Source: Minisyncoccia bacterium (GTDB lineage Bacteria > Patescibacteriota > Minisyncoccia > Moranbacterales > GCA-2747515). From it: a stretch of DNA of 64,000 nucleotides. Under the pieces are notes generated by a model. That model was not told the origin of the DNA. It saw only the letters and a list, made by a program, of their open reading frames with translations, and did no database searches. This document shows positions 2,888 through 61,464 of this stretch, in pieces. Numbering within the stretch: position 1 is the stretch's first letter; each line of letters begins with the position of its first letter. Position numbers and translations under genes: made by a program. The stretch covers positions 321,899-385,898 of the forward strand of contig JBGSQF010000013.1 in NCBI GenBank assembly GCA_041738235.1, written 5' to 3'.

Positions 2888-4537
2888 TCAATAGCAGAGA
2901 TAGTTGTCGTTCCAGGTATGCGGATCGGAAGGCTCCAGCCATTGCACACACCGCTTCCCTCCAATTGGTCCGGCACTGGACCAGGAGAAGTTAAGCGGAC
3001 TGCTCGGTGGCACGCAGAGGTAGTTGTCGTTCCAAGTATGCGGGTCAGCGCTTTCTCTAATCTGCGTACAGCGCATCCCTCCGATCGATCCGGCGCTGTT
3101 CCAACGCATCCCGTAGTCCTGGGTTGCGCAGAAGTAGTTATCCATCCAGGTATGCGGGTCAGCTCCTTCCGAGATCTGCGTGCAGTAGGCCCCGGAAACG
3201 GGTCCGGCATAGGACCAGACAAAAGTGCCGTCGGGACTTGTGGGGAAGTTAGTTACCGTGAACCCCATCGTCTGGGCATTATTGCCTTCGTTAGACTCAT
3301 GCAGGTTTCCCTGGTAGTCGGCGTAACATTGATAGGTGCGAGTTCCTGTGTCTCCCAGTCGGAAGCTATTGCTTATGTACTCCATCTTTTTTGCTCCGAC
3401 TCGCATGTCGCCTGCATCGACACCGTCATCTCCACGGCGGTTTCCTTGATTGATTTGGTAGTCAATGCGGAAACCGTTTGGGGCGTCACGGTTACCCACG
3501 TTTTGCACCTCGCAATACGGGTTGACGTAAGAATCCTTTCGAATGAATCCTCCCTGTCGAATAACCCAACCGTTTACCTTGAGGTACAGGTCGGAAACGA
3601 TGAGGTCGGCCTTCCAAGGCACGACATGGTAGGTGGCGCTTTTGCAGTTGTTGGCTTCGTTTAGCTCCGGAAGCCAGCCTTTGGAGTCCACGCAACAGGT
3701 GTACGTGCGATCTCCGGTGTTGCCCAGCTTCCAGCTGTCCCAGACCACTTCCGTGGCAATTTCACCCACTCTCGATTCTCCGGGGTCAAGGAAGTCCTCG
3801 TCACGCTCACTGCCATCCATACGGTGCGATACCTTGACTTGCAGAGGCGAGTCGATCTCGCCCAGATTGGTCATCTCGCAGTACGGATGCCAATAGTTAT
3901 CCTCCAATAATGTGGCGCCGTTGTAGTAGCGAGCACCCGTTATGGCATCAGAGAAATAGACGTCGGTGACGGTGAGGTCGGGACGCAGGCTTGTGACCTC
4001 GTACCGTTCCACACGGCTCTTGTTGTCACCCTCGTCATACTCTTCGACTTCGTTCCTGAAGTCGATCTCGGTGCGGAAGGCGATTGAGGAGATACCATCG
4101 GGGATGATGTAATCCTTCGTCTCCGTGATCGTCTCGCCTTCGTCGAGCTTGGCGATGGTGATGTAGCCCGTTTGCCATTGGACCCATTCTCCATCGTCGA
4201 TTGACACGAGATACTTGATGTCGATGGTGTCGGCATTGTCCCTCGTCTTCCAATTCCCCGCGTCGCCTCCCACAGCCTTCACCGCGACGCGGTTTCTGGC
4301 TTTCATACCGGGAAGGAATTGATCGTGTCCGGCGTAGAGCTCGTTGCCGTCGACACCGAGGATATCGGTGTCGTTTTTGAGGTTGACGGGGTCGAGGGGT
4401 TGAGGGTCGGTGGGATCAGATGTTGATCCGCCCGCTCCCGAGGTTGTAACAGTGATAGTAACTCCCTCGCAATCGGAAGCGAATGCCTCCGGAAGCAGAA
4501 GGAATAATGCAGTGACGAACAGTATGCCATATCTCAT
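2888..4537 (-). CDS. secreted repeat protein (549 aa) with CARDB-like segments and three C-terminal ~45-aa Cys repeats (C..DPHTW.DNY.C)
   Basis: ATG at 4537 with SD GGAGGAAAT upstream. Signal peptide MRYGILFVTALFLLLPEAFA. Three C-terminal ~130-nt tandem coding repeats. Elevated GC (~55%). The longer ORF start at 4663 overlaps the upstream gene and lacks an RBS. Confidence 0.7.
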   Translation of the reverse strand: MRYGILFVTALFLLLPEAFASDCEGVTITVTTSGAGGSTSDPTDPQPLDPVNLKNDTDILGVDGNELYAGHDQFLPGMKARNRVAVKAVGGDAGNWKTRDNADTIDIKYLVSIDDGEWVQWQTGYITIAKLDEGETITETKDYIIPDGISSIAFRTEIDFRNEVEEYDEGDNKSRVERYEVTSLRPDLTVTDVYFSDAITGARYYNGATLLEDNYWHPYCEMTNLGEIDSPLQVKVSHRMDGSERDEDFLDPGESRVGEIATEVVWDSWKLGNTGDRTYTCCVDSKGWLPELNEANNCKSATYHVVPWKADLIVSDLYLKVNGWVIRQGGFIRKDSYVNPYCEVQNVGNRDAPNGFRIDYQINQGNRRGDDGVDAGDMRVGAKKMEYISNSFRLGDTGTRTYQCYADYQGNLHESNEGNNAQTMGFTVTNFPTSPDGTFVWSYAGPVSGAYCTQISEGADPHTWMDNYFCATQDYGMRWNSAGSIGGMRCTQIRESADPHTWNDNYLCVPPSSPLNFSWSSAGPIGGKRCVQWLEPSDPHTWNDNYLCY

Positions 4538-4580
4538 GGCCGGATTTCCTCCGTTTTTGGGTTGATTGGTTGACATGTGA

Positions 4581-5300
4581 TCACTTGATGCACATGTCAC
4601 CTTTACCGAAGAGTGCATCATAGCTGACATCGTCCGGGTAATGCACCTGGAAGATGTCCGCACACACAGGCCAGGCGTACGTTCTCACGATCTGTCGGTT
4701 GCTGTCGAGTCCGTACCAGGCTTGTGCTTTGATGCACGAGGTGTCGAAGGGGTACCAGGCGTAGTTACCGACCTTGCGGACGGTGAACTGGTTGCCGGGG
4801 ATGGTGGCGGGGTCTTTCTCGTAGATGAACCCACGGAGGGTCCAACTGCCCTTAACATCAGATCCAAGATCCGTATTACGGTGATAAGTGTTACCGCTTC
4901 CTGGGTAGTAAGTGGCGTGATTAATGCCATCCTCAAACCCCTGGCTCTTATACCAATCCATCTCCAAAACATCGAAAGATCCGTCGGTGTATGCCTCCTC
5001 GACGTAAGCGACATGGCCTTCGAACTCCGCGATTGCGCCATCTTTCGGCTCGAACCCGACCATGAAGTCCAGGTTCCGAAGCTTATCGGACCACTGTCCG
5101 CCGTTCCATCCACTTCCGGTTATCGCCGAGGCGATGTCCGGGCGTTTGTATGCGGCCCACCAGGTGCAGTTTCCATGGTCACCACACTCGAAATGGCTCG
5201 TCGTGGACGTATATCCATAACACACCGAGTCACCAGCCAGCGCATTCACTCCGAAGAAAAACACGCAGACGCCAATCAGCCGAGCAAGTAAATTGCTCAT
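4581..5300 (-). CDS. secreted CHAP-domain peptidoglycan hydrolase/amidase
   Basis: Signal peptide. CHAP signature with Cys in GNCTWWAAY and downstream His in GHVAYVE. GC about 55%. Confidence 0.7.
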   Translation of the reverse strand: MSNLLARLIGVCVFFFGVNALAGDSVCYGYTSTTSHFECGDHGNCTWWAAYKRPDIASAITGSGWNGGQWSDKLRNLDFMVGFEPKDGAIAEFEGHVAYVEEAYTDGSFDVLEMDWYKSQGFEDGINHATYYPGSGNTYHRNTDLGSDVKGSWTLRGFIYEKDPATIPGNQFTVRKVGNYAWYPFDTSCIKAQAWYGLDSNRQIVRTYAWPVCADIFQVHYPDDVSYDALFGKGDMCIK

Positions 5301-6659: not shown

Positions 6660-9600
6660 CTACCACGTCCACGGATTCCACAATACAAAATTCTTAGTAG
6701 GTCGTGTCAAAGCTGGAGGAGTGACGGATTGTTGCGTCTGTTGAGTTTCTTGGGTTGAATTCGTTGGGTTTTGGATTTCTTCTGTGACTTGTCTTTCTGT
6801 ACGTGCTCCTTGCACACTCCCCTCTTCTGCTTGAGTTTGCGTTTCTGTCTGTGATGATACTTGTTGTATCTGACTTACGTAGTTTAGTACAATCGAAGTA
6901 TCTACTCTGTTTCCCGCTTTATCATAGGCTCGAATATTGAGAAGATACGTTCCAAGAGGAAGAGATTCGGGAAGAAGATAAAAAGACTCTTCAACACCTT
7001 GTCTTCTCCAAGACTTTAGAACTTTTCCATTCATATCGACAAGTTGAACCTTATAATAGGAAAGACCCGATCCATTAGGATTGTCAGCTGCAAGAAAATC
7101 TATTCTCTCTTTTCTGGTGAGAGTCTTTTTTTCTGGAAGAGGATTAATGAAAAAGGGATCGGTCTTATCAGTGATAAGAGTAAAGAAGTCAGAGATATCT
7201 GATCTATTCCCAGTGCTATCGATATAGCGTACGGCATATTGATTTTTTCCTTCCTTACTAGAAAGATTGAAGTTCCAAGAGCCCTTCTCATTTATAGAGA
7301 TAGTTTTGAGTTTTTTAGTACCTCCTTTATCTGTTTTGGTATAGAGAGTTATGGTTCCATTTCTTGCTTTTGGATTCTTTCCCTTAAGTCTGGGAGTGGT
7401 ATCGGATCGATAGTTAACATCTTTGAAAGAAATAGATTCCTCATTAGCAGAAAGGTTGCTCTTATTGTCATTTTGGAATTGTTCAAGGTTGGATTCTGAA
7501 GTTTGAAGCGTGGCGGAGTGAATGACAGGAGTGATATTGGGATCTTGTGTAGAAAGAGTTGCTTTCCAAGTAAAATTATTTGCTTTGGTATACTGGGGAA
7601 ATGTTATGGGAGGAGTGAAATCAGCCCAAGTAGATCCGTTGTCTATTGAGTATTGATACTCAATGCTAGTGCCTTCTGGAATCGTTTGATCTGTCTGGAA
7701 AGAGAGGAGTTCATTGGTATTTGGGAAAGAGAGGGTTTGTGAGGTGTAAGTGCCTGAATCAGAGATAAAAAGTCCGTCCTCTTGCCGAGCATATTTGATC
7801 TCCACGCTATCAAGGCTGGGCGTAATGGAATTGTCTTGAGTCGCAAGAACTGCCTTATAGCGAAAGTTGCGGGATAAGTTAACAGGCAGAGCATAAATGC
7901 CAGGATCGGTTCCCAAACTTGTGTATGTTTGACCTTCATCAAAAGAGTAGAACATTTCTATAGAAGTTCCTTCGGGAATAGTGGCTTCCCAAGATAGCTC
8001 AGAATACACCTCTTTTTGGTACGTGTCGGAAATATATTCTAAAGAAAAAAAATAATTCGTATCAAGAACGTTCGTATCTGAATCATTGTCCACATCGGTA
8101 CAGAGATCTGTATTTGATCCTCCAATAGCATAAATCCCACCATTTACCAACTCAGTTGATACTCTATTGAGACCAGTTGGTAATATCCCAATAATATCCC
8201 ATTTATCGTACTCCGGGTCATAGCTATATATATCCTTTGCACGAATAAGCGCATCATCTTTTCCTCCAATATATATAAGCTTACCATTTATAACTACCGT
8301 ATCACCACCACCTCGATATGAAGGCAGAAATGCCAAATCCGTATCCCATGTATCCGTGGCTGGATCATAACTTGCCATAGAGTTGGACACCATACCATCA
8401 CAATCCCGCCTCGCCCCAACGATATACAACTTTCCATTAATAAATTGACCCGAAGCCTGATTCATTTTTACAACAGGGGCAGGTGTTCCGGCCTCCCAAG
8501 TATCTGTTTCTGGATCATAGATCTCCATCTCAGTAGATGAAAGACCAGAACAATCTAAACCACCACTAATGTAGACAGGACCACCTCCCACGACATAGAT
8601 CTTCCCGTTATATACTCCTCCGACAGCTCCTTCCCTCACCCGACTCATAGGTGCGCCCGCTGTCCAAGTATCCGTTTCTGGGTCATATATTTCTACAGAA
8701 GAAAGTTCTGTCTTTGTAGGATAAACTCCGGTAGCACCTCCAAAGACATAGAGTTTGCTATCGTACGCAACAACCATTGGTCTCGTTCTTGTTTGCACCA
8801 TTGGGGATTTAGTCTCCCATGTATCGGTTGCTGTGTCGTAAACCAATAATGTATTATGTCCGCAATTTCCACAACTCATCTTTCCCCCACCCACAACATA
8901 TATTTTTGAACCAATAACAGCACTTCCCGCGCCTTTTGTCTCTTCGGGAAGAGGCGCTTTGTTTTGCCAAGTGTCACTCGATTCAGCATATACGGTTTTA
9001 ACATAAACTCCCTCACTATTATATACGTTATCTATATCAACAACCGAAAGACCGCTTTTATTATCCTCTTCATAGAAAGCCCCTGATTCACTCTTTTTGA
9101 CACTAACATACAAAAGATGATGAGTACCATCCAGAAAAGAATTGTGAACGCTATTATTTACGATTTCTGGAGTTGAAACATTATTATACGTTTTGACCAA
9201 AACATCATCTGCTGGACTCACTGTTCCCCGTGTATCAATAACCGAGAGGGCACCATTATTAATATTGGGATCATTTTTACTACTTACATATAAGAGATCG
9301 TTCGCAGAATCTAAAAAGGCATGCACTACATAATTATTCGCTATCGCTGGGGTGGTAGTTGTTTTATAAGTGATCACCAAAACATCGTCAGTGGCGGTCA
9401 CAGTTCCTTGCGTGTTGATCACGGTAAGACCACCCCCTAAAGTCCCCACATACAAAAGGTTATGCACCGAATCCATAAAGGAGTACGAAACATTGTTACC
9501 CCCGATCGCTGGGGTGGTAGTTGTTTTATAAGTGATCACCAAAACATCGTCAGTGGCGGTCACAGTTCCTTGCGTGTTGATCACGGTAAGACCACCACTT

Positions 9601-10436
9601 GTACTAACGTAAAGGAGATGCGTCGTCTCATCCAAGAAAGCATGCGATACGGAATTATGTCCTATCGCAGGTGTGGTGGTAGTTTTGTATGTTTTTACAA
9701 GTGTGTCATCACCAGCGCTGACCGTTCCTTGCGTGTTGATCACGGTAAGACCTCCACCCAAAGTAGCTATATAGAGAAGATTACGTAAATCATCAAGAAA
9801 AGCATATTTAACAGTGCTGTCATCGATTGCTGGGGTTGTAGTAGTGGTGTAGGTAGTAACCAAAACATCATCAGAGGGAGAAACAGTTCCTTGCGTGTTG
9901 ATCACAGATAATCCCTGACCATCAATGCTTATGTAGAGAAGATCGTTCTTTAAGAATGAGTTATGTATCATATTCCCGGGCAATGCTGGAGTCGATTCTG
10001 TGGAGTAAGTAATAATCAAACTGTCATCAGTTGGATCAACGGTATTACGCGTGTCTATAACTGAAACGCCTAATGAAGTATTAATATACAAAAGACCCTT
10101 AGAGACATCGAGAAATGAACTCCCTGTATTCCTGCTACTAAGCCCCGCAAAAGATCCGCTGGAATATAAATAACTTTTACCAAGAGTTACTTTCCCCTCA
10201 CCATTACGTGAAACTCTTGTAACAAGAGGACTATTATTTACGTAACCTGAATTAAAATCTCCGTCTGTGGTATCTGTATGAATGGTAGTTTTATATTTTA
10301 GACGTAAGTCTCCCGGAATTTGATAAAGATCAATATTTTCATCAGTTGTCCCCATCTCCCAATCCTCCTGAGAAGTAAAAACTTGCCCCTGACTTGAGGC
10401 GTAGACGAACTGCAAAGAAAAAAAGGGGGCCAACAA
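6660..10436 (-). CDS. giant secreted surface protein (1258 aa): YVTN-like beta-propeller repeats, Kelch-repeat propeller, Ig/FN3-like domains, Gln/Thr-rich C-terminus
   Basis: Six or seven ~54-aa repeats LLYV..GGGLTV(I)NTQGTV...TTTTPAI. Kelch-like blades (KIYVVGGG, KLYVFGG, YDPETDTW). The annotated start is TTG. A canonical signal peptide lies upstream in another frame (see findings). Confidence 0.75.
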   Translation of the reverse strand: MLAPFFSLQFVYASSQGQVFTSQEDWEMGTTDENIDLYQIPGDLRLKYKTTIHTDTTDGDFNSGYVNNSPLVTRVSRNGEGKVTLGKSYLYSSGSFAGLSSRNTGSSFLDVSKGLLYINTSLGVSVIDTRNTVDPTDDSLIITYSTESTPALPGNMIHNSFLKNDLLYISIDGQGLSVINTQGTVSPSDDVLVTTYTTTTTPAIDDSTVKYAFLDDLRNLLYIATLGGGLTVINTQGTVSAGDDTLVKTYKTTTTPAIGHNSVSHAFLDETTHLLYVSTSGGLTVINTQGTVTATDDVLVITYKTTTTPAIGGNNVSYSFMDSVHNLLYVGTLGGGLTVINTQGTVTATDDVLVITYKTTTTPAIANNYVVHAFLDSANDLLYVSSKNDPNINNGALSVIDTRGTVSPADDVLVKTYNNVSTPEIVNNSVHNSFLDGTHHLLYVSVKKSESGAFYEEDNKSGLSVVDIDNVYNSEGVYVKTVYAESSDTWQNKAPLPEETKGAGSAVIGSKIYVVGGGKMSCGNCGHNTLLVYDTATDTWETKSPMVQTRTRPMVVAYDSKLYVFGGATGVYPTKTELSSVEIYDPETDTWTAGAPMSRVREGAVGGVYNGKIYVVGGGPVYISGGLDCSGLSSTEMEIYDPETDTWEAGTPAPVVKMNQASGQFINGKLYIVGARRDCDGMVSNSMASYDPATDTWDTDLAFLPSYRGGGDTVVINGKLIYIGGKDDALIRAKDIYSYDPEYDKWDIIGILPTGLNRVSTELVNGGIYAIGGSNTDLCTDVDNDSDTNVLDTNYFFSLEYISDTYQKEVYSELSWEATIPEGTSIEMFYSFDEGQTYTSLGTDPGIYALPVNLSRNFRYKAVLATQDNSITPSLDSVEIKYARQEDGLFISDSGTYTSQTLSFPNTNELLSFQTDQTIPEGTSIEYQYSIDNGSTWADFTPPITFPQYTKANNFTWKATLSTQDPNITPVIHSATLQTSESNLEQFQNDNKSNLSANEESISFKDVNYRSDTTPRLKGKNPKARNGTITLYTKTDKGGTKKLKTISINEKGSWNFNLSSKEGKNQYAVRYIDSTGNRSDISDFFTLITDKTDPFFINPLPEKKTLTRKERIDFLAADNPNGSGLSYYKVQLVDMNGKVLKSWRRQGVEESFYLLPESLPLGTYLLNIRAYDKAGNRVDTSIVLNYVSQIQQVSSQTETQTQAEEGSVQGARTERQVTEEIQNPTNSTQETQQTQQSVTPPALTRPTKNFVLWNPWTW

Positions 10437-20828: not shown

Positions 20829-23348
20829 TCATGGAAACTTTGGAAATGCTGGGGGTGGCGAGGGAGCATTTGCCCGATTAAGACGATCTTCTATCTCTTT
20901 TTTTACAACATCCTTGTCTCGACCATAGCGCAAGCGAGACAATTCTTTTACTATCTCCACCTGTTCAGGTCGACCCTCTTTTGGTATATAGGTTTTCATA
21001 TTAAAAGGTTTTGTAGATTCATTGTTCATAAGTGCTCGCACAAAACAACTGTAATTATCAGCGTTCACCAGATCGTTGGCGGTAAATATCGGTTCAAATT
21101 GCTTTTCCAAGAATTCTGCATCTTCTGGTCCCACGCGAAATGCCGCCATTGATCCCACGTTCCCAAAGACCGCTTTAGAAATTTCCTCAGAAAGTTGTCC
21201 AATGAATTGATGTGCGATCGTCAGGTCCAAACGATACTTTCTCGCTTCTGAGAGGATCTGTGAAATAGAATCGGTTGTCACATTCTGAAACTCATCAATG
21301 TACAAATAAAAGTCACGACGTGTTGCCTCCGGCATATCTACACGCGACAATGCTGCCATCAACAATTTTCCGACTATCACCATACCAAGCAGATAACTGT
21401 TTGTTTCACCGATCTTTCCCTTGGAGAGATTGATAAGCAAGATCTTTCCTTCGTCCATAACCTTCCGAAAATCGATCGTGCTGACTTGCTGCGAAATGAT
21501 AGGTCGCATCATATCGTTAGCGATAAATTGCGTAAGTTTTGAAGTGATATAGGGTACCATATTGGCAAGCGATGCCTCTCCCCCAGCCTTCTCGGCCTCC
21601 TTCTGCCAAAAGTCCTTTACAATAGGATTCCCACACTTTGTAAGTTTATAACGACGAAATTGGTCGTCGGCGAGCACCTTTGGGATCTCCATTAACGTCG
21701 ACCCCGATTCCGGATCTTCCATAACCAAGAGCATGGCATTTCGCATATATTGCTCAAACATCGGACCCCCCGTTTGTTTGAGATCGTACAGCTTGTCAAA
21801 GATATTGATCATCTCATTGATCACGAAAGTTTTCTCCTCCGGACGATGGTACTCGAGCATATTAAGCCCAAAGGGGCGTTCAATGTCCGAGGGATCAAAA
21901 TGTACAACATCTTCCAAACGTTCTGCGGGGATCGATGCAAGGAGTGACTCAATGGCATCCCCGTGCGGATCGATAAAACACATTCCTTTACCATTGGCGA
22001 TATCCTGTTTTGCCAAACCCTCAAGAAAAACAGATTTACCAACACCTGTCTGTCCGATCACATACAAGTGTCGCCGTCGGTCTGAGTCGGAAAGGCGAAT
22101 ATCCGTCTTTGTGCCACGATAATCATTAAAGCCAAGTGCAAGCCCTTCTTTTGGAATGTTGGTAGGAGGAGGAGCAGCACCTGCCTTAAGCCATTTGATC
22201 TTTGGCGTTTGCGTCGTGGATATAGGAAAGTGAAACATACCCGCCAACTCTTCCACGCCCAAAACAACACTATTCCCCTTATTGAAAGTCCTCATTATAT
22301 AGTCAAACACTACGGCTTTCTTTTGGATCCTCTTTTTGACAACGAGATAATTAATATCAGCACGCTCAAACTGCCCAAAGGCATTTTCCATCTGTCCGAG
22401 TATTTGATCCGCCCGTTGGCGAGTCTTCGCCGAGGCAAGAAGACGAATATTCACAAAAAAAGCTCCTTTTCTCGTTTTTTGCTCAATGGCTTTTACAAGT
22501 TCCTGCTCATCAGGGGTCAACTGTATCGGATCCTTTTCCGACGGCATTTTTCGCTCTTGATCCTTACGCTTTCCTCCACCAGAGGCAACCACATCCAAAA
22601 AACCCTTACCCACCCCACCTGCAACATCTTTAATGATCGATTTACGAACATCCTTGAGCTGTTTTCCCTGTTGCATCTTATGAGCGATATTTCTCCCGGT
22701 ACTTCGCCATCCATCCCCTGCCGGCACGAGAAGGAATTGAATAGCCGCCCCTTCCTCTATCGTCTCAAGTCGACTAAGCGCATTACTGATCTCATTCATC
22801 GGATCGACGTCCATCTCCTCGTACGTCAGTAGCGGCAACGCAGATGAACCCTTGAGCGTGAGAGCAGAAACAGCGTGTTCGGAATCTGAGGTAAAGATCG
22901 TATAGTCGGAAGTTTGTTCGATAAGCGCATCTGGAAAAAAACTGTGGATCTGCTTCTCTATCGCCTCGCGGTATCGCCTTGGAAAAGAAACATAAAAAAA
23001 TATCTCCTCACTATTCGACGGATTCGCCATTTCCAGAGAGAACGTTGCGTCCCCCATTGGATTTCCAAACATAGAATGGCGTTTCTTTAGCCCTGCGAGC
23101 GAAGCGAGTAGTTGTTCCATTGCTCCTATTTCTTCTTTCCACTGTTCAGGATTGCCTCCAGTCTCCCCCTGTTTCTTGCCCCCTCCAAGAGTAACTCGAA
23201 CGACCTCCAGATCCATATTCAAAGACGCCTGTACCTTTCGACGAAAGACCACGATAGATTGAAAAAGAAAAACACCGCCACTTATAAATGCTGCTATCCC
23301 AGCAATAAGTATCAGTGAAAGAAACAAAAGCTGAATTGGATCTGTCAT
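20829..23348 (-). CDS. type IV secretion/conjugation-type ATPase (VirB4/TrbE-like or VirD4/TraG-like), 839 aa
   Basis: N-terminal TM helix and a ~400-aa N-domain. Walker A LYVIGQTGVGKS followed by IDPHGD, Walker B YLYIDEFQNV, motif RKYRLDLTIAHQFIGQL. Confidence 0.6.
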   Translation of the reverse strand: MTDPIQLLFLSLILIAGIAAFISGGVFLFQSIVVFRRKVQASLNMDLEVVRVTLGGGKKQGETGGNPEQWKEEIGAMEQLLASLAGLKKRHSMFGNPMGDATFSLEMANPSNSEEIFFYVSFPRRYREAIEKQIHSFFPDALIEQTSDYTIFTSDSEHAVSALTLKGSSALPLLTYEEMDVDPMNEISNALSRLETIEEGAAIQFLLVPAGDGWRSTGRNIAHKMQQGKQLKDVRKSIIKDVAGGVGKGFLDVVASGGGKRKDQERKMPSEKDPIQLTPDEQELVKAIEQKTRKGAFFVNIRLLASAKTRQRADQILGQMENAFGQFERADINYLVVKKRIQKKAVVFDYIMRTFNKGNSVVLGVEELAGMFHFPISTTQTPKIKWLKAGAAPPPTNIPKEGLALGFNDYRGTKTDIRLSDSDRRRHLYVIGQTGVGKSVFLEGLAKQDIANGKGMCFIDPHGDAIESLLASIPAERLEDVVHFDPSDIERPFGLNMLEYHRPEEKTFVINEMINIFDKLYDLKQTGGPMFEQYMRNAMLLVMEDPESGSTLMEIPKVLADDQFRRYKLTKCGNPIVKDFWQKEAEKAGGEASLANMVPYITSKLTQFIANDMMRPIISQQVSTIDFRKVMDEGKILLINLSKGKIGETNSYLLGMVIVGKLLMAALSRVDMPEATRRDFYLYIDEFQNVTTDSISQILSEARKYRLDLTIAHQFIGQLSEEISKAVFGNVGSMAAFRVGPEDAEFLEKQFEPIFTANDLVNADNYSCFVRALMNNESTKPFNMKTYIPKEGRPEQVEIVKELSRLRYGRDKDVVKKEIEDRLNRANAPSPPPAFPKFP

Positions 23349-38749: not shown

Positions 38750-39183
38750 GGGGTTGTTTAGATTCGACAGGTTGTTATTTGACATAAGTAAGCAAGCCGG
38801 TTCACGCGCGGTAACACCGAAACCTTCTCCGCGCACTCGATAAGTGCAAACTTCATCACAAAAGCCAAAGACGCTATTGCGCGAGCATTTAGCACCTCTT
38901 TCGCTACCGCCCTGGCTTAATTGCCGAGGCCATCGAATTTCGTGACTCCTTATAACGAATGTTCGGTGTCATATGTATAAGGATAGTCCTCTTCCCCCTT
39001 CTCGAAGGAAGAAGGACGAAACCTCCGAGACCGCCTTAGATGTACTTTGTTTGTTTCTGGGCATCTTCGGTTGGTTCAGGTGAAGGGAAGTAATGCGCCT
39101 TTTATCTGTCAAACAAACTCTGCTTGAAGAAAGCTTTGTCATATCATCTCTGGACATGGGTGCAATTCCCATCAACTCCACCA
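38750..39183 (+). ncRNA. ssrA: tmRNA (ssrA), ~434 nt
   Basis: 5' GGGGTTGTTTAGATTCGACAGG matches the tmRNA consensus GGGGCUGAUUCUGGAUUCGACGGG. 3' GGACATGGGTGCAATTCCCATCAACTCCACCA matches the T-arm plus acceptor and encoded CCA. Acceptor pairs GGGGUUG/CAACUCC. In-frame tag ORF ends ...FATALA-TAA (stop 38918-38920). Lies just downstream of smpB. Confidence 0.8.
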
Positions 39184-58261: not shown

Positions 58262-58681
58262 TCAAAATGTAGTATTTGACCCCCTCAACCAGGTATCGAT
58301 CGCCGTAATAATGATCAATCCTGAAAGCATTATAATAACACCGACGATCGAATAGATCATATTGCGTTTTGCTGTTTCAATAATGTCATCATTCCCAGCA
58401 GAAACTAAATATTGTATCCCGGAGATCACGAAAGCGATAATAGCAACGGTACCAGCAATTAGCAAAAGCCACTTTAAAACATTGAGCGATACCTCTAGCG
58501 GAGTCTTTTCCGACAATCCAAGTTTTGTCCCTTTTGGGACACATGTTCCTTTATACAGCGTAAGGTTAGAATCTTGCTTTGTACAATCGGACTCAGTGAG
58601 CGCATATACATTTGACTGTAAGAGAAAGCAAGAAAGAAATAAAAAACTTATCAAAAAAAGTTTTTTCATATCAAAAATCAT
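58262..58681 (-). CDS. secreted protein with conserved C-terminal two-helix membrane hairpin module (pilin-like paralog 1; VirB2/TrbC-like topology)
   Basis: Signal peptide, ~45-aa ectodomain, then the shared module LKWLLLIAGTVAIIAFVISGIQYLVSAGNDDIIETAKRNMIYSIVGVIIMLSGLIIITAIDTWLRG. Confidence 0.55.
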   Translation of the reverse strand: MIFDMKKLFLISFLFLSCFLLQSNVYALTESDCTKQDSNLTLYKGTCVPKGTKLGLSEKTPLEVSLNVLKWLLLIAGTVAIIAFVISGIQYLVSAGNDDIIETAKRNMIYSIVGVIIMLSGLIIITAIDTWLRGSNTTF

Positions 58682-58740
58682 AATCTATTTTTACTTTCTT
58701 ATTTTTACAAGATCTTATTTCCATTTTACCACTTTTCACC

Positions 58741-58776
58741 CAAAAACAAAAGCGACCCTTGGCATAGGATCGCTCT
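58741..58776 (-). terminator. rho-independent terminator after paralog 2
   Basis: Minus-strand AGCGATCC-TATGCCAAG-GGTCGCT followed by TTTTGTTTTTGG. Confidence 0.4.
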
Positions 58777-58796
58777 TGCGAAAATACAGAGAGTAT

Positions 58797-59222
58797 TTAG
58801 AACTGAGAGGTGGTTCCGCCAAGCCAGGTACTGACCGCATTGATGATGATGAGTCCCATAAGCGCTACGATCACACCAACGATCGCGTAGATCATCGTTG
58901 TCTTTGCTTTCTCTATTTTGTCATCATCTCCAGCCGCAGTGAGGTACAGGATACCAGAGATCACAAAAGCGATAACCGCCAAAAATCCTACTAAATAGAG
59001 CAACCAGCGCATTAATGTAAGCACAACCACTGAGATCCGAGCAGAAGACAATTCAGATGCCGACCCCGAATCAGTAAGTCCAGTTGACCACCCGCCGTCT
59101 GCCGGACCAGTAATTGCCGCCTCCACTCCTCCTGCCAAAGAAAACAAAACGACTCCGAAAACAAATACCGAAACAATAAACAAAGCACCTCGCATTTTCT
59201 CCACCAAAAACATTTGCCTCAT
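58797..59222 (-). CDS. pilin-like paralog 2 (same C-terminal module, Ser/Gly-rich ectodomain)
   Basis: Module MRWLLYLVGFLAVIAFVISGILYLTAAGDDDKIEKAKTTMIYAIVGVIVALMGLIIINAVSTWLGG. About 90% aa identity to paralog 3 over the module, with a shared 33-nt identical core. Confidence 0.55.
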   Translation of the reverse strand: MRQMFLVEKMRGALFIVSVFVFGVVLFSLAGGVEAAITGPADGGWSTGLTDSGSASELSSARISVVVLTLMRWLLYLVGFLAVIAFVISGILYLTAAGDDDKIEKAKTTMIYAIVGVIVALMGLIIINAVSTWLGGTTSQF

Positions 59223-59260
59223 ACTTTTTTTATTAATTTTTAAACATTATGTAATAAACA

Positions 59261-59647
59261 TTAAAATTGAGCAGTTTGTCCGCCAAGCCAAGTATTTATG
59301 GCATTCACAATAATGAGTCCCATGAGCCCAACAATTACCCCAATGATTGCATAGATCATCGTTGTCTTTGCTTTCTCTATCTTATCGTCATCACCTGCTG
59401 CAGTAAGGTAAAATATAGCAGAAATCACAAAAGCAATGATCGCAAGAAATCCCATGATATAAAGAAGCCAGCGCAGAAGGCTCAGGACAACCCCAGATAT
59501 GGACGTCGAGCTCAAACCAAGTCCGGTCAAGTTAGAATTACTGGTTGGATTTGTCCACTGTGCGCTCACCACCACTGGAGCAAGAAGAAGAGATGCTCCA
59601 ATCCCATACCACATCCGCCGAATGTTTCGAATTATGTGCATAGGCAT
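59261..59647 (-). CDS. pilin-like paralog 3
   Basis: Signal peptide, ~35-aa ectodomain, then the conserved module ...AAGDDDKIEKAKTTMIYAIIGVIVGLMGLIIVNAINTWLGG. Confidence 0.55.
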   Translation of the reverse strand: MPMHIIRNIRRMWYGIGASLLLAPVVVSAQWTNPTSNSNLTGLGLSSTSISGVVLSLLRWLLYIMGFLAIIAFVISAIFYLTAAGDDDKIEKAKTTMIYAIIGVIVGLMGLIIVNAINTWLGGQTAQF

Positions 59648-59755
59648 TTCTAATTACTTTTTATTTTTATTATTCTCCACACACTCCTTTTGTAAACAGG
59701 AAAGGATGCATAGATCTCAGTCACTTGCTTTTATGTTAACACAAAATCTCGCGCA

Positions 59756-60034
59756 TTACAATAACATATCAATTGTGGATAACATCACAAGCGCTCCAAG
59801 CGCCACGATCACTCCGACCACCGAATAGATCATCCACTTCTTTGCCCGATCAAGAACATCTTGGTTTCCACTTGCTAAAAGATATAAAAGTCCCAAGCCA
59901 ACGAACGCGATAACTGCAACCACTCCAAAAACTTGAAGTAGCCATTGTAACACATTAGTTAAAACGGTCGATATAGGAGTGGCATCAGTGATCACTCCAG
60001 CGTACGCGGTAGGTATGGACAGATATTGGAACAT
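59756..60034 (-). CDS. pilin-like paralog 4 (minimal form, 92 aa)
   Basis: Short leader directly followed by the module LQWLLQVFGVVAVIAFVGLGLLYLLASGNQDVLDRAKKWMIYSVVGVIVALGALVM. Confidence 0.5.
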   Translation of the reverse strand: MFQYLSIPTAYAGVITDATPISTVLTNVLQWLLQVFGVVAVIAFVGLGLLYLLASGNQDVLDRAKKWMIYSVVGVIVALGALVMLSTIDMLL

Positions 60035-60066
60035 CTTTTTTTCAGAGTTGGATCAGTTATCTATTA

Positions 60067-61464
60067 CTACTGTACATATATAAGAACCGTTGATTTCTTT
60101 GTTGTATCAGCTTTGTATATCGCTGTTATAGTCGTACTCCCTGCAGAAACAGCTCGCACGACCCCATTATCATCAACCGTTGCCACGGCAGTGTTACTTG
60201 ACGTCCAGGTAGCAAGATCATTTGAGATCTGAGTTCCCCCCTGTGGTGGCCCAAGGGCGGGACACTGGATCGCCTGTGTGCTCGTATAGAGGTTTAGGAC
60301 CGTTTCACTCCCCACACTTGCGGTCTTCATCCCGGGACATGCGATAAGATATGCGATATCCGGAGGAAGAACGAGTATTTGAACAGATTCCTTTCTTCCG
60401 TTTATTGCTGCCGTGATCGTAACATTTTTCCCACCCGTAGTAGTGGCTGGTGCGGTCACCTTTCCCTTATCAACGGTAGCTAGGGTAGTATCAGATGATG
60501 TCCAGGTAGCCGTACTGGTAACATCGGTAGCACTTCCGGTATTATTGCAATCCGAGATCGTACTTGTGGCAGAATCCCATGCCTTAAGCTGAACCGAATC
60601 TCCTGCTTTAAGTGATTGGCTCGCGTACAACCCACATATGGCCATATCCCCACTTCCACTACCCCCACCACCTCCGCTACCACCTCCTCCACCGTCACTA
60701 CCACCATCTCCCGATTCAGAAGTTGTGTTACACGACACCTGCCACCAATTGCCCGATACATAACTCTTGTTGATCGGGAGTACCAGGATAACGGCATTGA
60801 TGATCACCCAAGAAAGTAATACGATCGTAAAACCAACAAGTGTATTTTTAATGAATGTTTTAGCACTTTCCATCATGGAGGAGTTCCCTGCTGAAGCAAT
60901 GTACATGAGACCCGCCGCCACCAACATCACAAATGCCACTGCTGTCAAAACCCTCATACCCCAATTGATGATATTTTGAATGAGTTGGAAAAGATGACAG
61001 AGCGTACAAGTAGACTGTCCTGTTCCACCACACGGAACCAATCCACCAGATGAAGATCCCGTATTTGTTTGAGAAGTCGACTCCGTCCCACCACAACAAA
61101 TGTCTGTCGTTCTTTTGGTGCAATCGGTACTCGTCCCAGAAGTCTGCCCCCCAGTACAAGCAGAAGAAGCAACACAAGAACCGTCCTTGTAGGTCTTTCC
61201 CCCAGATGTATAACTACAGGACTGTGCCTGAATGTCAATTTGCAAGATCGCATCACAACAAATATCCGTCTGAGAAGTACATTGGTTACTAGCCCCCTTA
61301 AATTGAGAAGTACAGGATGTTGCAAGCTTGCACGTCCCTGCGTACGTATACGATCCACTCGCATAGGTGCATGTTTCACCCGCTGCAAACACTTCTTGAG
61401 GCAAGCCCACTATCACCGCCAACGAGAATAACCCAAGAAAAAATGTGAGGATCTTTGTTTTCAT
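60067..61464 (-). CDS. 465-aa chimeric surface protein: signal peptide, three Cys-rich ~40-aa repeats, embedded pilin-like two-helix module, poly-Gly/Ser linker, two Ig-like (Big_2-type) domains
   Basis: Repeats C.Y.SG..TY..G.C......C......C....TDICC. Module INWGMRVLTAVAFVMLVAAGLMYIASAGNSSMMESAKTFIKNTLVGFTIVLLSWVIINAV. Linker GDGGSDGGGGGSGGGGGSGSGD. Two segments with ATVD..G.V.A...G..TITA. Confidence 0.6.
   Translation of the reverse strand: MKTKILTFFLGLFSLAVIVGLPQEVFAAGETCTYASGSYTYAGTCKLATSCTSQFKGASNQCTSQTDICCDAILQIDIQAQSCSYTSGGKTYKDGSCVASSACTGGQTSGTSTDCTKRTTDICCGGTESTSQTNTGSSSGGLVPCGGTGQSTCTLCHLFQLIQNIINWGMRVLTAVAFVMLVAAGLMYIASAGNSSMMESAKTFIKNTLVGFTIVLLSWVIINAVILVLPINKSYVSGNWWQVSCNTTSESGDGGSDGGGGGSGGGGGSGSGDMAICGLYASQSLKAGDSVQLKAWDSATSTISDCNNTGSATDVTSTATWTSSDTTLATVDKGKVTAPATTTGGKNVTITAAINGRKESVQILVLPPDIAYLIACPGMKTASVGSETVLNLYTSTQAIQCPALGPPQGGTQISNDLATWTSSNTAVATVDDNGVVRAVSAGSTTITAIYKADTTKKSTVLIYVQ

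Follow-up and report, generated by a model that had tools for sequence, protein, structure and literature searches.

The window analysed here is a stretch of 64,000 nucleotides (64 kb) from contig JBGSQF010000013.1 of a Minisyncoccia bacterium, and the subject is a 465-amino-acid (aa) protein encoded by the first gene of a pilin array. The window is a housekeeping segment from the chromosome of an ultrasmall, Moranbacteria-like bacterium; it carries pgk, eno, pfkB, an ftsA-like gene, nusG, rplA, thyA, folA, gatB, gyrB, a PBP gene and a tmRNA gene, and the closest enolase in GTDB was that of a Candidatus Moraniibacteriota metagenome-assembled genome (MAG; Patescibacteria) at 69%. Five consecutive minus-strand pilin genes (58262-61464) lie between eno and pfkB. 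The first is a complete coding sequence (CDS) at 60067..61464 (-), taken from the program-made list of open reading frames (ORFs) of the window, which agreed with the position, strand and length given in an earlier sequence-only reading of this DNA. Based on the ORF, its Pfam matches and syntenic orthologues at three other loci (L001, L002 and L003), it was annotated as a modular clamp-type VirB2-like pilin, array gene 1.

The four genes behind it, all on the minus strand and numbered here as pilins 2 to 5, encode small pilins of 92 aa (59756..60034; PF18895 E 2.9e-10 and PF04956 TrbC at 33.5 bits, cut-off 27.9), 128 aa (59261..59647; PF18895 E 4.9e-10), 141 aa (58797..59222; PF18895) and 139 aa (58262..58681; PF18895 E 1.7e-9). 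The core of the leading protein was homologous to all four. Pairwise identity within the five genes was 26-73%, as in a tandem array of divergent genes, and no other pilin module was found in the rest of the 64-kb window. Pilins 3 and 4 were 73% identical, much closer than the other pairs (41-58%), which suggests that the array has undergone a recent duplication or gene conversion. A terminator-like hairpin of 14 pairs with a T-run (58746-58779, minus strand) lies between pilins 4 and 5; terminator counts in the region did not exceed shuffle expectation.

Domain layout and the four-Cys core

A hydropathy scan of the 465-aa protein located hydrophobic segments at residues 1-28, 165-194 and 203-234. 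The first (Kyte-Doolittle 2.09) is a Sec-type signal, in which a signal peptide is predicted at residues 1-27 (MKTKILTFFLGLFSLAVIVGLPQEVFA, followed by AGE; 61384..61464, minus strand, as for all features below), with cleavage probably after VFA. Two 6-Cys modules come next, followed by an S/T/G-rich linker (residues 125-140; 61045..61092), identified from its sequence and low model confidence, and by the Cys-clamped pilin core (residues 141-245; 60730..61044), which was delimited using PF18895, the conserved Cys, the modelled helices and the substitution rates described below. A Gly/Ser/Asp linker and two immunoglobulin-like (Ig) domains complete the protein. The match to PF18895 T4SS_pilin at residues 158-225 of 465 (32.0 bits, cut-off 26.6, Pfam) put the pilin module in mid-polypeptide, where the sequence-only reading had it, and the core is flanked by about 113 aa on the N side of the mature protein (residues 28-140) and by 220 aa on the C side. 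Of the 20 Cys, the repeats contain 12, the clamp 4 and each Ig domain 2, so that every group is even-numbered. A full-length AlphaFold2 (AF2) model was built on a custom 74-row alignment; the Cys repeats and both linkers were unresolved in it, with a predicted local distance difference test (pLDDT) score <50. No close relative of the full protein was found in GTDB genomes, and a PHROGs search matched the Ig domain only, with no holin-type match to the helical hairpin of the core.

Upstream of the core, three repeats of about 40 aa with 8 Cys each had been read from the sequence. There are two, with 6 Cys each: module 1 at residues 32-70 (61255..61371; regular expression and AF2) and module 2 at residues 83-124 (61093..61218; regular expression and module profile), both of the pattern C-x12/13-C-x5-C-x10/11-C-x6/7-CC. 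C145, C153 and C156 belong, together with C245, to the four-Cys frame of the pilin core and not to a third repeat. Module 2 was 40% identical to module 1, and a hidden Markov model (HMM) of the module matched both copies. The regular expression recovered 40 copies from 27 of the 217 collected proteins, and the HMM 47 copies from 31 of 155 family proteins. Copies occur on either side of the core, and the module was the commonest partner domain in the collected set. AF2 run on a 42-copy alignment of the module produced a three-stranded beta-sheet (pLDDT 87.3). The Cys-repeat region matched nothing in Pfam or among PDB sequences, and comparison with known small disulfide-rich folds (e.g. defensin-like) gave no structural similarity to a solved fold, which leaves this ~40-residue module unannotated and without a solved structural relative. 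An index of 5.8 billion proteins, which seems blind to short biased sequence, returned nothing for the Cys repeats with either a single sequence or the 42-module alignment.

The 22-residue linker GDGGSDGGGGGSGGGGGSGSGD was found as described earlier (residues 252-273, nucleotides 60646..60711). The accompanying claim that its DNA is prone to length variation stood in one part: linker length differs between orthologues, and Tandem Repeats Finder (TRF) detected a weak, imperfect period-3 repeat (60656-60706; score 32, 64% matches) in place of a clean, slippage-prone one. Variation driven by slippage was downgraded because the repeat is imperfect. The two C-terminal Ig domains that had been read were recovered as well. 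Ig domain 1 (aBig_2-like; residues ~274-366, with C277 and C306; 60367..60645) was assigned using Pfam, AF2 and PDB matches, although its aBig_2 match at residues 315-358 (E 3.2e-5, 24.1 bits) is below the cut-off of 27. Ig domain 2 (Big_2; residues ~367-465, with C376 and C401; 60070..60366; pLDDT 81-96) matched Big_2 at residues 414-457 (E 2.6e-11, 43.7 bits, cut-off 22.8). AF2 modelled two beta-sandwiches at residues ~273-365 and ~372-464, mostly at pLDDT 70-96, and the best PDB match of the model was tandem Big_2 of LigA (8gyr, E 9e-12), followed by S-layer proteins and intimin (1f00). The Big_2 match and the resemblance to LigA and intimin support the earlier view that the Ig domains are of the adhesin type. 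Both Cys of Ig domain 1 were kept in a relative (P0002).

The core is a unit of about 105 residues of the form GLVPCG-x(6-17)-C-x2-C-H, helix, SAGN, helix, W-x(2-6)-C. In the window protein these elements occur in order as GLVPCG, CTLCH (residues 153-157, window 60994-61008), a helix at 155-190, the SAGN loop at 191-194, a helix at 195-228 and WWQVSC. Both helices were modelled at pLDDT 85-90 and are joined through the SAGN loop, so that the predicted leader is followed by the family's arrangement of two hydrophobic helices in a hairpin with a short polar loop. Among 97 extended relatives P144, C145, C153 and C156 were invariant and C245 was near-invariant. Three of the four clamp Cys (C145, C153 and C156) stand before helix 1 and C245 stands after helix 2. 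This four-Cys/CxxCH clamp is family-wide and may constitute a disulfide or metal site.

VirB2 and TraA propilins span the membrane as an N-out/C-out hairpin. The same topology, with the outer ends of the hairpin clamped together, is predicted for the core because the protein has a Sec-type signal and even-numbered Cys groups, and because clamp Cys are found at both ends of the hairpin. The first two of these properties also support the proposal of the sequence-only reading that both flanking regions would be extracytoplasmic.

Since His follows CxxC in 96 of 110 clamp cores, and the motif is on the predicted extracytoplasmic side, the outer end of helix 1 was also considered as a c-type haem site or a redox-active CxxC in an electron-transfer or redox protein. 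This is very improbable. The other 14 of the 110 cores have D, Y or F in place of His, cytochrome-maturation genes were not seen in the window, and C245, conserved at the opposite hairpin end, suits two disulfides or a Cys4 site better. Passages of PMC10633639 furthermore describe Patescibacteria as generally without respiratory chains.

Syntenic loci, cassette exchange and selection

The order eno, large pilin and then four small pilins was the same in L001, L002 and L003, which are contigs from other samples. The large pilin of L001 was 92% identical to the window protein over residues 1-248, where BLASTP identity stops, and reproduced the junction of Cys repeats and core; the junction of core and Big_2 was reproduced in L002, with 59% aa identity over 328 residues. 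Apart from the unusual layout, nothing points to an assembly chimera or to a fused or decaying ORF without function, an explanation that is effectively refuted. Such a fusion artefact had been named as a possible refutation of the gene, and was dismissed because L001 and L002 repeat the two junctions at the same syntenic site in other samples. Nucleotide homology to L001 also extends without a break from pgk to residue ~266, all segments have dN/dS values far below 1, and the architecture class recurs many times elsewhere. In L004, a more distant Moranbacteria MAG, two unrelated small ORFs occupy the interval between eno and pfkB, and the array is therefore lineage-specific at this site.

Using blastn, homology between the window and L001 (80% at the nucleotide level) was traced from pgk to 60665, at residue ~266 in the Gly linker, and resumed at 60016, in the next gene. 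The interval between 60665 and 60016 encodes two Big_2 domains in the window and ASH/Calx-beta in L001. It delimits an exchangeable C-terminal cassette (60017..60664, minus strand), and the 5' breakpoint of the swap falls in the Gly linker. The core was kept in all four syntenic loci, and the flanks show all four combinations: Cys repeats are present in the window and L001 and absent from L002 and L003, while the C-terminal domains are Big_2 in the window and L002 and Calx-beta in L001 and L003. By enolase identity, L001 is the sister of the window (90%) and L003 that of L002 (86%). Both alleles, Big_2 and Calx-beta, are thus present within each pair. This distribution conflicts with the enolase tree and requires repeated exchange or a long-lived polymorphism. 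A diversity-generating retroelement was rejected because no DNA repeat of the 465-aa gene occurs anywhere else in the window; neither a template nor a variable repeat for the gene was found there. L002 alone carries a 116-aa gene of the bAvd / 23S_rRNA_IVP type (8307-8657) between pgk and eno, upstream of the array.

The ratio of nonsynonymous to synonymous substitution rates (dN/dS) and the synonymous divergence (dS) between the window and L001 were estimated using the method of Nei and Gojobori, and the values are approximate since dS is near saturation. The pilin core had the lowest dN/dS in the locus (0.012, dS 1.34), followed by enolase (0.042, dS 1.43), the Cys repeats (0.068, dS 0.83) and pgk (0.112, dS 1.13), with the small pilins at 0.08-0.19 (dS 0.87-1.58). 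Recent horizontal transfer was ruled out as the source of the 97% identity of the core, because its silent sites have diverged like those of the flanking genes; the conservation was accordingly attributed to selection. That the core is more constrained than enolase and the small pilins argues for specific protein contacts over a passive anchor.

Clamp pilins in other arrays and the proposed role

A profile of the core matched 54,772 cluster representatives at E <=1e-3 and 7,485 at <=1e-10. Architectures were counted in 121 single-module proteins, namely those among the top 150 matches together with 12 seed sequences. A C-terminal extension only was found in 68, an N-terminal extension only in 16 and extensions on both sides, as in the window protein, in 12; the remaining 25 were bare cores. 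Databases contain many proteins with the modular clamp-pilin architecture besides that of the window, and the earlier label 'chimeric' overstates its rarity, as extended clamp-type cores form a large, recurrent family. Another 34 of the best 150 profile matches were single polypeptides with 3-17 tandem pilin modules (P0075-P0087, P0120, P0193 and others), and 17 stretches of the 1775-aa P0120 were matched. Such polypeptides may be pilin polyproteins, fused arrays or possibly gene-calling artefacts.

SLT or SLT_3 was found by Pfam in the extensions of 12 of the 97 extended family members. Other extensions with Pfam matches contained CARDB (5 proteins), Calx-beta, Big_2, other Ig-like domains and subtilase, and most were unannotated. 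The 25 residues past the core had a median of 68% G/S/T/N/D/P in the wider family, consistent with a flexible linker. At one locus (L029, 10001-13032) two clamp-core proteins adjoin, the second fused to an esterase/PHB-depolymerase, with no small pilins near; the neighbours of the pair are DsbD_TM, a peptidyl-prolyl isomerase and a sortase/SpaA pilus gene pair.

The position of clamp pilins was surveyed in 37 further metagenome loci, which comprised about 11 distinct, unrelated arrays with a clamp pilin. Wherever a clamp pilin occurred in a tandem array it was the 5'-most gene; this holds for the syntenic group, for L032 and for the ~11 unrelated metagenome loci. The arrangement was noted at L034, L040, L047, L049-L054, L058-L060, L062 and L032, besides the window at 58262-61464. 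Behind the leader were 2-4 small non-clamp pilins, with a ~90-aa pilin often second, and many of the clamp leaders were bare proteins of 130-150 aa. In L032 (2348-3409) the first array gene encodes a fusion of a clamp core with an SLT lytic transglycosylase and is followed by small pilins of 90, 130, 142 and 156 aa, which is the plan of the window array in a different genomic place. In L040 (5385-9167) a non-clamp pilin module with a C-terminal extension of ~1120 aa is array gene 2.

The 465-aa protein is tentatively regarded as a modular leader pilin, that is, a low-copy initiator or tip subunit that would engage the small pilins and the machinery and present exchangeable binding modules, an assignment to which a little less than an even chance is given. 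Briefly, following Sec export and cleavage of the signal peptide, the core would insert as a hairpin whose two ends lie outside the cell and whose SAGN..AK loop faces the cytoplasm, and C145, C153, C156 and C245 would tie the outer ends together through disulfides or a bound metal. Flexible linkers would hold out the two 6-Cys beta-sheet modules N-terminally and the pair of Big_2 Ig domains C-terminally. The core would be the constant carrier and the flanking modules exchangeable cargo, most plausibly binding the surface of a host or partner cell. The carrier would dock with the four small pilins and the assembly machinery as the initiator or tip of a VirB2-type filament, the adhesion modules would be shown at a distance from the cell, and exchange of cassettes from strain to strain would retune binding specificity. 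In conjugative pili, reportedly in the work of Costa et al. of 2016, both pilin termini face the filament exterior. Pili of type IV secretion systems (T4SSs) grow beneath a pre-assembled tip complex (PMC12624023).

Several points weigh against this assignment, in addition to the near-saturated silent sites on which the estimate of constraint is based. PF18895 proteins are not known to form filaments, and a load of 12 kDa at the N-terminus and 20 kDa at the C-terminus of each subunit would be sterically awkward in a filament wall. The out-in-out topology is itself a prediction from sequence. A search of PDB sequences with the core profile recovered no solved pilin, the matches being designed helical proteins with non-significant E-values; a Foldseek search of the whole AF2 model was dominated by the Ig domains. 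VirB4, VirB3 and VirB6 were absent from the scanned ORFs of the window, and the only T4SS-like machinery gene seen there, ~37 kb off, encodes an 839-aa membrane-anchored ATPase (20829-23348, minus strand) that is a candidate for a type IV coupling protein (T4CP)-like component, with a weak likeness to TraD/VirD4 far below cut-offs. Pilus formation by any Patescibacterial pilin is treated as not established in passages of PMC12857230. Finally, some clamp cores that bear large extensions are not part of a pilin array at all (L029, L031 and L044).

These last cores, whose partners include an esterase, DUF2341 and other large domains and which have no small pilins in their vicinity, would be expected if the protein were a membrane-resident surface adhesin, in which the hairpin is a two-helix anchor in the cytoplasmic membrane that shows the Cys modules and Ig domains and never polymerises. 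The absence of T4SS core machinery near the array fits such a protein, bulky loads on both termini suit an anchor better than a filament subunit, and the enzymes found as extensions (SLT and subtilase) need no filament. It is a possibility to be taken seriously, on balance a doubtful one. The strongest constraint in the locus (0.012 against 0.042 for enolase) would not be expected of a passive anchor, the strict first place before small pilins at many unrelated loci implies a role tied to the array, and bare clamp pilins of 130-150 aa, with nothing to display, are common.

The SLT extensions also raise the alternative that the protein is an envelope component of a T4SS, either a base or stalk adaptor or a wall-spanning element, nearer to VirB5, VirB6 or VirB1, with outer domains that act on the wall or on cargo. 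The leader of L032 carries SLT, a VirB1 activity, in an otherwise identical five-gene array, SLT or SLT_3 recurs at the frequency given above, and very strong constraint on the core suits a fixed docking site. According to passages of PMC12102498, most Patescibacterial genomes with VirB2 homologues are without a separate VirB1, and fusions of SLT to the core may account for T4SS loci of this kind. As an account of the window protein it is improbable: the modules carried here are Ig and Cys-knot modules and no enzyme, no machinery genes adjoin the array, and a C-terminal cassette that swaps between sister strains is typical of partner recognition and not of a fixed machine part.

Returning to the leader-pilin assignment, its extension to the whole group, in which clamp-type PF18895 pilins would be dedicated initiator or tip subunits of Patescibacterial T4SS filaments and a universal carrier for modules that recognise a host or attack its wall (Ig, Calx-beta, 6-Cys knots, SLT and protease), swapped at the Gly-rich linker between sister strains, is considered unlikely as a general rule. 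For the window, the 465-aa protein is a plausible host-recognition part of its pilin gene cluster. VirB2-like arrays are reported in passages of PMC10633639 and PMC12857230 to be essential for epibiotic growth of a cultivated Saccharibacterium. The present results suggest that array gene 1 is a distinct, strongly conserved carrier for grafted, strain-swapped adhesin or wall-hydrolase modules, and such a carrier points to candidate determinants of host specificity, to the subunit to tag in a search for a filament and to the domains to use in binding assays. If the extension to all clamp-type pilins is true, the leader would mark host range in the genomes of episymbiotic bacteria.

Elsewhere in the window, two genes encode probable large surface proteins, a 1258-aa Kelch-repeat protein with Big_13 (6660-10436, minus strand) and a 591-aa CARDB protein (2888-4663, minus strand). 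The tmRNA gene is located at 38750-39183 (plus strand), with the tag peptide ANFITKAKDAIARAFSTSFATALA, and a tRNA-Glu(CTC) gene is located at 2405-2480.

Comparison with known systems

VirB2-like pilin arrays are described as widespread in Patescibacteria, with 441 arrays of 2-11 genes, and as essential in S. epibionticum (passages of PMC12102498, PMC10633639 and PMC12857230). The window array resembles those described in passages of PMC12102498 (Quinonero-Coronel 2025) and PMC10633639 (Wang 2023) in its Pfam family (PF18895/PF04956), in its tandem divergent genes, in its place on the chromosome of a reduced genome and in the phylum-level group to which it belongs. It differs in that the pilins published there are small, whereas the window leader has 465 aa, and in that the array does not adjoin virB4. 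Grafted extracellular domains, a Cys-clamp subtype, a leader rule and cassette exchange are unmentioned in the searched passages of PMC12102498, PMC10633639 and PMC12857230. Members of the PF18895/TrbC-VirB2 superfamily in general are small stand-alone proteins of roughly 70-150 aa encoded beside VirB4, VirB3 and VirB6, and the window protein and its array depart from both properties.

Individual domains have counterparts in other systems. Tandem Big_2 Ig domains are shared with the adhesins LigA of Leptospira, intimin and invasin, which have a lipobox or an outer-membrane beta-barrel as anchor and many more Ig repeats; the window protein has two, on a pilin hairpin. The SLT domain of hydrolases of the VirB1/PrgK type was found on sister clamp-core proteins at the same place in the array (L032), whereas the window protein is without a hydrolase domain.

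Modular type IV pilins, such as PilB (vWA) and PilC (lectin) of S. sanguinis (PMC8179133), follow the same logic, with a module grafted onto a pilin carrier through a linker, many architectures and a proposed display at the tip for adhesion, as proposed here for the leader. Their fold and machinery are unrelated to those of VirB2-like T4SSs, which makes them an analogue and not a family member. The window protein has a Sec-type signal in place of a class III prepilin signal and carries modules on both ends of its hairpin instead of on the C-terminus only, and Pfam and NCBIfam scans of it contained no type IV pilin families (IPR012902). VirB5 (PMC12624023) may share the role of a first-assembled, tip-located subunit that recognises the recipient, but it is a soluble helical pentamer with no relation in sequence or fold to the membrane hairpin. 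The Patescibacterial system is related to the T4SSs of monoderms, for which the component table of PMC12624023 lists no VirB5 counterpart; the tip role may therefore be vacant. If clamp-type pilins in general are dedicated initiator or tip subunits, the leader would correspond, within T4SSs, to modular type IV pilins and to phage receptor-binding proteins.

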